A stretch of DNA of 32,000 nucleotides from Candidatus Saccharimonadota bacterium (GTDB lineage Bacteria; Patescibacteriota; Patescibacteriia; 2-12-FULL-60-25). Below, one piece after another: positions 22,805 through 24,442 of this stretch. The notes beneath the pieces were generated by a model. That model saw nothing but the letters and a program-made list of their open reading frames with translations, searched no databases and was not told the DNA's origin. The stretch spans positions 360,001 to 392,000 of the forward strand of contig CP064964.1 in the NCBI GenBank assembly GCA_016699205.1, written 5' to 3'. The position numbers and the translations under genes were made by a program. How positions within the stretch are numbered: the first letter of the stretch is position 1; every line of letters starts with the position of its first letter.

Positions 22805-24304
22805 CTAAAACCCCATCCCTCCGCCCATGCCTCCCATGCCACCGCCGTGGTCATGTCCAACCTCTTCCTTCTTTGGCTTATCCGCAATCACGCATTCCGT
22901 TGTGAGGAATAATGCGGCTACGGAAGTAGCGTTCTGAAGGGCAAAGCGCGTGACTTTGGCCGGGTCGATGATGCCAGCTTCCACCATGTCTTCGTAACGA
23001 TCCGCATCGGCATTATAGCCCATGTTGCCGGAAAGCTTTTTTACCTCCTCGACGACCACGGAGCCGTCTTTACCGGCGTTATTAGCGATCGTCTTCAATG
23101 GTTCCTCGATGGCGCGGCGCAAAATGCCGACACCGATCTTTTCTTCACCTTCAACTTGAAGCGTGTCGAGTACCTTGATGGCGCGGATCAATGCGACACC
23201 GCCACCTGGAACAATCCCTTCTTCAATCGCGGCTTTGGTGGCAGCAATTGCGTCCTCGATGCGATGCTTCTTTTCTTTCATTTCAACTTCCGTTGCAGCA
23301 CCCACTTTGATCACACCAACGCCGCCCATGAGCTTGGCTTGGCGCTCGACCAACTTTTCTTTGTCGAACGATGAGTCCGTATTTTCGATTTGATTGCGGA
23401 TAGCGGAAGCGCGGGCTTCAATGGCGGTTTTATCGCCTTTGCCATCGACAAGCGTGGTTGAATCTTTTGTCGAAATAACTTTGCGTGCAGAACCAAGATC
23501 CTCAACTTCAACCGAGTCGAGCTTGCGGCCGACATCTTCCGTGATAAACGTGGCGCCTGTGACAATCGCGATATCCTGAAGCATTTCCTTGCGGCGATCG
23601 CCAAAGCCCGGAGCCTTGATGACGAGCGCATTAAACATTCCACGGAGCTTGTTCAAGACAAGAGCGGCAAGAGCTTCATTATCGATATCATCGGAAATAA
23701 TGACGAGTTCTTTGCGTCCCAACTTGAGAAGCTTTTCCAAGAGCGGAAGAAGATCATTGAAAGAAACAATTTTCTTATCCGTCACGAGAACGTAAGGATC
23801 AGCGTACTCTGCTTCCATGCGGTCCTGATTGGTGACCATGTAATGTGAAGCGTAGCCGCGGTCGATGCGCATGCCTTTTACAACTTCTTTGGTGATGCCA
23901 AACGCCTGACCTTCCTCGACCGTGATCACGCCCTCCTCCCCCATCTCAGCCACAATCTCGGCGATGGTTTTGCCGATTTCCTTGTCGTTGGCAGAGATCG
24001 AGGCGACATTCTCGATCATATCACCCTTAACCGGCTGTGCGACTTTGTCGCGGAGCTCGGTGACGAGCGCTTCAACGGCTTTTTCCATGCCGCGCTTTAC
24101 TGCCAATGGCGAGGCGCCGGCCGTGATGTTCTTGATACCTTCCGCGATCATCGCCTGAGCGAGAACGGTGGCTGTGGTTGTACCGTCGCCAGCGACATCG
24201 TTGGTTTTGGAAGCGACTTCTTTTACGAGTTCCGCGCCCATGTTTTCAAGCTCGTCCTCAAGCTCGATTTCTTTTGCGACAGTTACGCCGTCTTTGGTAA
24301 TCAT
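22805..24304 (-). CDS. groEL: chaperonin GroEL, residues 47 to end (longest uninterrupted ORF)
   Basis: [17 protein letters not shown]...[14 protein letters not shown]...C-terminal GGM repeats ([13 protein letters not shown]); TAG stop. Confidence 0.9.
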
Positions 24305-24313
24305 CGGCGATCC

Positions 24314-24442
24314 CTAACCGCGATCGATCACAACATTGCGGCCCTTGGGGCCGAGCGTGACTTTGACGGCGTTGGCGAGTTTGTCGACGCCACGCTTCAA
24401 GGCCTGGCGAGCTTCCTCGTTGAAGTAAATGATTTTTGCCAT
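24314..24442 (-). pseudogene. groEL: groEL N-terminal 42 codons plus in-frame TAG (24314-24316), same frame as the main ORF
   Basis: ATG 24442: [49 protein letters not shown](24304); 4 nt downstream of the groES stop. Confidence 0.85.

Follow-up and report, generated by a model that had tools for sequence, protein, structure and literature searches.

The subject of this report is an interrupted chaperonin gene in a 32,000-nucleotide (nt) stretch of bacterial DNA (contig CP064964.1 of assembly GCA_016699205.1, forward-strand positions 360,001 to 392,000), which is referred to here in its entirety as the window and is numbered from its first letter. A groES-groEL operon is encoded on the minus strand of the window. 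Its first gene, groES (24447..24740), specifies an intact protein of 97 amino acids (aa), matches Cpn10/GroES models and ends in TAA, only 4 nt ahead of the ATG of groEL at 24442. The complete groEL frame (24442..22805) extends over 1638 nt, or 546 codons, and closes with a terminal TAG (22807..22805) that follows a GGM-type tail. Within this frame lies a single internal stop, an amber TAG at codon 43 (24316..24314), around which the minus strand reads GTT GTG ATC GAT CGC GGT TAG GGA TCG CCG ATG ATT ACC. The stop divides the gene into a 5' fragment composed of codons 1-42 plus the TAG (24314..24442), which contains the TLGPKG nucleotide-binding loop, and a 3' open reading frame (ORF) of 499 aa (22805..24304), which corresponds to GroEL residues 47-545 and starts at the ATG of codon 47 (Met47; 24304..24302), four codons further and 9 nt after the TAG. 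In a mechanical listing of ORFs, the groEL frame is represented by these two pieces, a 42-aa ORF and a 499-aa ORF.

The groEL frame is no chance ORF, because the 42 residues upstream of the stop are identical to the GroEL N-termini of close relatives (P0001-P0004), and because the total length of the frame equals that of the 545-aa Cpn60 called intact on related contigs. The 499-aa ORF scores 671.9 bits against the TIGR02348 GroEL model (cutoff 582.1), to which it aligns over positions 47-526, and 685.2 bits against NF000592, where the alignment likewise begins at model position 47. The identical GroES protein is encoded on 15 public contigs, each with groEL as the next gene, and the groES-groEL order is the same on all related contigs. 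By its match to GroEL models and its location in a groES-groEL operon, the gene belongs with the group I chaperonins; what it lacks is an uninterrupted N-terminal frame, since residues 1-42 are separated by TAG-43 from residues 47-545 and the TLGPKG loop resides on the upstream piece. The best database protein matches are from the Patescibacteria (candidate phyla radiation, CPR), and the nearest named organism is Candidatus Uhrbacteria. Codon 43 aligns with Phe43 of the Thermus thermophilus GroEL and with Phe44 of the Escherichia coli protein, and the equivalent residue is located on the equatorial stem loop, where it contacts encapsulated substrate (PMC8749442, PMC11390479). Re-reading of the minus strand and alignment of the products uphold the description given in an earlier note on this DNA, which had placed the TAG in frame, four codons before ATG-47, in a gene starting 4 nt from groES, had equated the codon with F44 of E. 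coli, and had pointed out that the TLGPKG loop is lost from the downstream ORF.

Comparisons with related sequences define the nature of the change. All 16 of the related groEL sequences that extend over codon 43 encode Tyr at this position, using TAC in 13 cases (L001-L010, L016, L017 and L021) and TAT in three (L018-L020, 82% identical to the window). These sequences represent 15 distinct public contigs, one of them retrieved twice, at 82-98% nucleotide identity. In a broader alignment of 113 homologues, position 43 is occupied by Tyr in 110 and by Phe in the remaining three. The contigs that encode the identical GroES protein derive from the same species but from different strains: their identity to the window is 93-98% in groEL and reaches about 98% over stretches of 5-7 kb, with 0-1 gap, and wherever such a contig is long enough the gene following groES is called as an intact 545-aa Cpn60. 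In these alignments, a conserved Tyr43 codon has been altered by one substitution at its third position (TAC -> TAG). A degenerate pattern specific for the TAG found 0 matches in genome_contigs and metagenome_contigs, a scan with the corresponding TAN pattern returned nothing beyond one contig already included in the set of relatives, and a pattern built on the divergent tract described below found 0 matches in viral_contigs. Some stretches of genome_contigs are masked, and that the window's own record is missing there is uninformative. The protein records searched hold no exact entry for the 42-aa or the 499-aa product, nor for the 716-aa, GGDEF and 358-aa proteins of the window. None among the best 120 listed database homologues is split at codon 43, and one of the 120, P0036, is truncated by a homopolymer frameshift at about codon 73. 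Because no relative, contig match or recorded product carries the TAG, TAG-43 is, within the collections covered, private to this record.

A change of the genetic code is one explanation to be considered for an in-frame amber codon. Eight genes in the window are terminated by TAG, namely rpmE, an rml fusion, nadR, a receiver-domain gene, a gene for a DUF4153 membrane protein, a PAS-GGDEF gene, 29915..30529 and groEL itself; these are the eight genes that the earlier note had cited in stating that TAG is not globally reassigned, and both the list and the statement hold. Terminal codons are also interchanged between strains, such that groEL ends in TAG in the window, L010 and L005 and in TAA in L001 and L021, and prfB ends in TAA in the window and in TAG in L010 and L016. 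In view of the eight TAG ends and of these TAG/TAA swaps at the same terminal codons, TAG is a genuine terminator in this species. Over the approximately 11 kb that are comparable, the other genes have the same length as in relatives, and among the genes compared only groEL shows an in-frame TAG relative to its orthologues. Genome-wide reassignment of TAG, or pyrrolysine decoding in the lineage, would have the in-frame TAG-43 as its sole support, together with the circumstance that the window contains the gene for RF2, a release factor that does not read UAG, while RF1 is not directly seen. This proposal meets not only the eight TAG-terminated genes and the strain interchange at the groEL and prfB ends, but also the finding that no other window gene requires a sense TAG to match its relatives, the lack of a tRNA(CUA) within the window, whose tRNAs are tRNA-Gln(CUG) and tRNA-Val(GAC), and a full-text literature search in which no description of a reassigned UAG in Patescibacteria came to light. 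We regard it as next to inconceivable, and the strain interchange of TAG and TAA by itself effectively excludes a genome-wide reassignment. As a bona fide terminator in this Uhrbacteria-like lineage of Patescibacteria, TAG calls for no alternative genetic code.

The release factor of the window was itself considered as a clue to UAG decoding and was set aside: it carries the SPF motif and scores 487 bits with the prfB model (cutoff 370), which identifies it as RF2 and makes it uninformative on RF1. Its gene, prfB (19669..20838, minus strand), lies 3 kb downstream of groEL and is a continuous ORF aligned to positions 3 to 353 of the prfB model; it seems to be devoid of the site for programmed +1 frameshifting that many bacteria have in prfB.

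If TAG is a stop codon in this organism, GroEL could still be synthesized from the interrupted gene were the stop functionally bypassed, and three routes can be envisioned. A near-cognate or suppressor tRNA might read through UAG-43; peptidyl-tRNA-Gly might make a +6 hop from GGU to GGA over the stop, for which the expected peptide would be NVVIDRGSPMITK; or translation might terminate and then re-initiate at AUG-47, resulting in a GroEL made of two pieces (42 aa and 499 aa), with the break at the tip of the equatorial stem-loop hairpin. Several features of the site are compatible with such a scheme, including the position of the stop at the tip of the S-loop beta-hairpin, a structurally forgiving cut site (PMC8749442), the nearby in-frame ATG, and the full preservation of the remainder of groEL. 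The flanking RNA offers further candidates for recoding signals. The UAG is situated in the loop of a local hairpin (24297..24331, minus strand) with a predicted stability of -13.3 kcal/mol, and three adjacent private wobble changes (GGC TAC GGC -> GGT TAG GGA) create the motif UAGGGA 6 nt before ATG-47, by which the pairing with the anti-Shine-Dalgarno (anti-SD) sequence upstream of ATG-47 is raised from about -1.7 to -4.9 kcal/mol, as computed with the organism's own 16S tail, ...CACCUCCUUUCU.

On closer comparison, neither the hairpin nor the pairing stands out. The same hairpin is formed by the relatives with TAC or TAT, with stabilities ranging from -10.5 to -17.7 kcal/mol; approximately 9% of the 42-nt windows in groEL are as stable as the UAG hairpin, and the fold of 146 nt around the UAG has a z value of -0.99. 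Bypass or readthrough stimulated by this hairpin was therefore rejected, given that the structure is also found in TAC relatives, at times in a stronger form, and that the z value is unremarkable. An evolved junction of stop, SD sequence and restart was likewise rejected, the pairing energy being unexceptional: of the 174 internal in-frame ATGs, 19% pair at -4.9 kcal/mol or better, and the true gene starts here are mostly without SD sequences, with a mean pairing of -2.1 kcal/mol. The prospective start codon is itself of little age, for residue 47 is Thr in 105 of the 113 homologues, Met in five and Ile in three. With Thr in the great majority and Met present only in the immediate relatives, Met47 is a recent, incidental substitution. 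As a source of the three adjacent wobble changes, template switching at a quasi-palindrome was also considered and discarded on inspection, since the new inner stem contains G-U pairs, which are non-complementary in DNA, and since this mechanism also fails to explain nine further downstream changes.

Programmed recoding would be marked by a conserved stop and by an RNA signal specific to the allele, and a split gene by a restart signal above background and a conserved split. The site displays none of these features, and a search of the literature brought up no account of CPR genomes in which groEL is interrupted. By the evidence of the sequence, the site is no evolved device for recoding or for splitting the gene. 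Functional bypass of the stop by any of the three routes must also contend with the stop being conserved in no relative, with the absence of a split at codon 43 from the best 120 listed homologues, with the lack of a tRNA(CUA) in the window, and with the efficient and common use of TAG as a stop here, including at the end of groEL; in addition, whichever route were taken, an amino acid that is aromatic in 113/113 homologues would be either missing or exchanged. We consider bypass quite improbable, and it is highly improbable that the TAG is real and GroEL is nonetheless made through termination at UAG-43 with re-initiation at AUG-47 or through low-level readthrough or hopping at GGU-UAG-GGA. 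Were this the case, the 42-aa and 499-aa pieces arising by re-initiation would come together again at the severed tip of the equatorial stem loop, and the system would be without natural precedent among group I chaperonins, whether as a two-piece or as a recoded one.

Apart from the amber codon, the gene bears no mark of decay. It has no indels relative to its relatives, and synonymous and non-synonymous codon counts against them range from 34:4 to 150:11, groEL being under very strong purifying selection in the clade. There is neither the excess of non-synonymous changes nor the additional indels or stops that would be expected of a decaying pseudogene. At 22 sites in groEL, the window has a private base that is found in none of the five full-length close relatives; 21 of these sites are third codon positions, and the only private changes to the protein are Y43* and K64E. 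Both of these fall in a divergent tract of 82 nt (24236..24317, minus strand; gene nt 126-207, codons 42-69) that has the TAG at its edge and holds 12 of the 22 private sites; the probability that an independent random event would fall within the tract is about 5%. Codon 64 (24251..24253, minus strand) is GAG, encoding Glu in place of a residue that is Lys in 111 of the 113 homologues, Pro in two and Glu in none. Within the tract, 11 of the 12 changes are at third positions and 5/12 are transversions, as compared with 0/10 outside it, where all ten private changes are synonymous transitions. Gene nt 121-210 show only 80-87% identity to every relative, near or far, and the distant L017, L018-20 and L021 are no closer to the tract than are the near relatives. 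With all relatives at this low level of identity, the donor of the tract is unsampled, and by the composition of its changes the tract is a real, evolved, divergent sequence and a mosaic segment.

Other parts of the window carry comparable clusters of private substitutions. Tracts dense in such changes are found at 20629..20794, in the 5' part of prfB, where almost all of them occupy third codon positions, and at 22327..22456, which encompasses the 3' end of a MamF-like gene and the adjoining intergenic region. The strain appears to be mosaic, having received imports from a divergent lineage that is itself unsampled.

These observations lend some weight to the possibility that the TAG is genuine, in the form of a very recent or segregating nonsense allele (TAC -> TAG) that arose in, or was imported with, a short recombination tract. 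In this event, GroEL would be truncated after 42 residues, and any product started at Met47 would be expected to be defective, being without the TLGPKG loop and also missing one of the strands of the stem loop. The cells could then survive only if they had another cpn60, if readthrough of the stop were leaky, or if the allele were a transient hitch-hiker. The high base accuracy of the window allows that the base is genuine, the mosaic structure of the strain, evident in three or more divergent tracts within about 8 kb, supplies a vehicle, the coincidence of the TAG and K64E in one tract is consistent with a donor copy that was atypical or degenerate, and the lack of further decay fits a very recent event. 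On the other hand, such an allele would have to persist in the face of very strong purifying selection on groEL in its usual groES-groEL operon, no other sample in the contig collections scanned carries the TAG, and a functional donor would not have had a TAG where 113/113 homologues have Tyr or Phe. We hold this explanation to be a serious, if tentative, one, and nearly as likely as a flaw of assembly, for which additional evidence comes from other disrupted genes.

The window contains a second disruption. A large surface-protein gene (8337..12154, plus strand) is split at a junction at about 10431 into a 716-aa ORF (8337..10487) and a 554-aa ORF (10490..12154) with a C-terminal PG_binding_1 domain. 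The two ORFs form one continuous gene in L022 (GCA_020051655.1), which is 99% identical, and the window is without approximately 358 nt at this location, amounting to one repeat module of about 120 aa lost out of frame. This loss could be either a real deletion or a collapse of repeats during assembly, and in the former case it might reflect a real pseudogene load, in keeping with a genuine nonsense allele in groEL. Moreover, in one public assembly of the same species (L016; JGI 3300056827, Ga0558118_01860, 5711..7347) groEL is split into pieces of 97 aa and 448 aa, the latter being P0036, owing to the loss of 1 nt from an A-run. The neighbouring genes of L016 for an ATP-binding cassette (ABC) transporter and a MamF-like protein are also fragmented, a pattern that reads as a signature of long-read error.

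Taking these lines of evidence together, we infer that the TAG most likely originated in a flaw of the assembly or consensus that is local to a mosaic, strain-variable part of the gene, although our confidence in this origin is only middling. By this account, the consensus or the assembly would have gone wrong locally at the mosaic stretch and introduced the TAG into the record, whereas the organism's real groEL would encode Tyr43 and yield a normal 545-aa chaperonin. A flaw of this kind is favoured because the two anomalous changes, Y43* and K64E, are confined to one small divergent tract, because groESL is strongly constrained in the clade, because the window has a second disruption with the pattern typical of repeat collapse at about 10431, and because public assemblies of the species hold error-broken groEL, as exemplified by L016. 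A consensus-level knockout of groEL is furthermore unlikely a priori, since groESL is usually single-copy and essential. Two considerations weigh against an assembly flaw. First, base-level accuracy is high, with 57 of the 62 private coding differences over about 7 kb at third positions and no indels relative to relatives over about 11 kb, and a random base-call error is accordingly improbable from the outset. Second, the tract, with 11 of 12 changes at wobble positions, is evolved and is not noise, so that the TAG may have been carried in real DNA. Among the explanations put forward in the earlier note, consensus error, strain variation and recent inactivation thus survive, while readthrough and a two-piece chaperonin gained no support. 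The note had also proposed that orthologues be aligned at this codon and that a Tyr, Trp or Phe codon in relatives would reduce the TAG to an assembly error. Such codons are indeed present throughout (TAC/TAT in 16/16 groEL sequences, Tyr/Phe in 113/113 homologues), yet their presence does not separate an assembly error from a nonsense allele private to the strain.

Several further features of the window were noted. Downstream of groEL, a probable intrinsic terminator (22777..22797, minus strand; ACGGGCT-AAT-AGCCCGT followed by TTTT) was recognized by eye only; like the promoter of the operon, also a by-eye reading, it was not listed by a consensus scan. A full-length 16S rRNA gene (15508..16994, minus strand; 1410.8 bits) possesses a canonical anti-SD tail and is followed downstream by a receiver-domain gene and the gene for tRNA-Val(GAC). 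No 23S rRNA match was found anywhere in the window, and the 16S gene appears to be unlinked from 23S. The CCUCC anti-SD of the 16S rRNA is intact, but an SD-like sequence is absent from most genes, even from groES and groEL, which are highly expressed; the exception is the PAS-GGDEF gene, which is preceded by AGGAGG with a pairing energy of -14.1 kcal/mol. At 12168..13887 (minus strand), a gene for a NadR-type nicotinamide mononucleotide (NMN) adenylyltransferase / ribosylnicotinamide kinase adjoins one for a PnuC-type NMN transporter, a pair for the salvage of nicotinamide adenine dinucleotide that is typical of reduced genomes. Finally, an ORF at the window edge (30583..31959, minus strand) encodes the domains of a VirD4/TraG-type type IV coupling protein (T4SS-DNA_transf, TrwB_AAD_bind and TraG-D_C).

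The interruption matters mainly for curation. The groEL/cpn60 gene is a universal marker and barcode gene, and an internal stop leads gene callers either to report an N-terminally truncated 499-aa Cpn60 or to drop the gene altogether, in a genome that probably represents its species. Should the TAG be confirmed and GroEL nevertheless be made, the case would become one of an essential chaperonin that is split or recoded in nature, in an organism whose genome is reduced.

With respect to known systems, the interruption is an ordinary defect of the record, in which an amber codon breaks a conserved gene. It resembles the amber mutations that are annotated as 'internal stop' pseudogenes in that a single-base change from sense to TAG occurs in a conserved gene whose frame continues beyond it, but it departs from the usual pseudogene in showing no relaxed selection, no further lesions and no known functional paralogue. 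Metagenome-assembled genomes contain local errors of consensus or assembly at strain-variable or repeated sites, usually shown by disagreeing reads. The groEL lesion, located among clustered private variants in a window that has also lost a repeat module, is akin to these errors, although the rest of the window is very accurate and the lesion is judged here from the consensus sequence. The error-split groEL of L016 offers another parallel, from the same species and the same operon and with groEL called as two ORFs; it differs in originating from a 1-nt deletion in an A-run among fragmented neighbours, whereas in the present gene a base has been cleanly substituted and the neighbourhood is otherwise intact.

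Programmed recoding of UAG is represented by pyrrolysine decoding, natural amber suppression and bypass of the T4 gene 60 type over a UAG in a hairpin, and such sites are conserved among relatives and dependent on specific signals or machinery. The groEL site is superficially similar, with an in-frame UAG in an essential-looking gene, a hairpin loop and flanking Gly codons (GGU UAG GGA). Unlike programmed sites, however, it has its stop in one record only, its hairpin is shared with TAC relatives, its take-off and landing codons are non-identical, and no suppressor tRNA is encoded in the window. Likewise, the in-frame AUG 9 nt after the stop, the weak SD-like motif and the break at a hairpin tip recall systems of termination-reinitiation (translational coupling) and naturally split proteins, from which the groEL site is distinguished by a split that is unconserved, an initiation signal at background level, and residues 43-46 that would be absent from both pieces.

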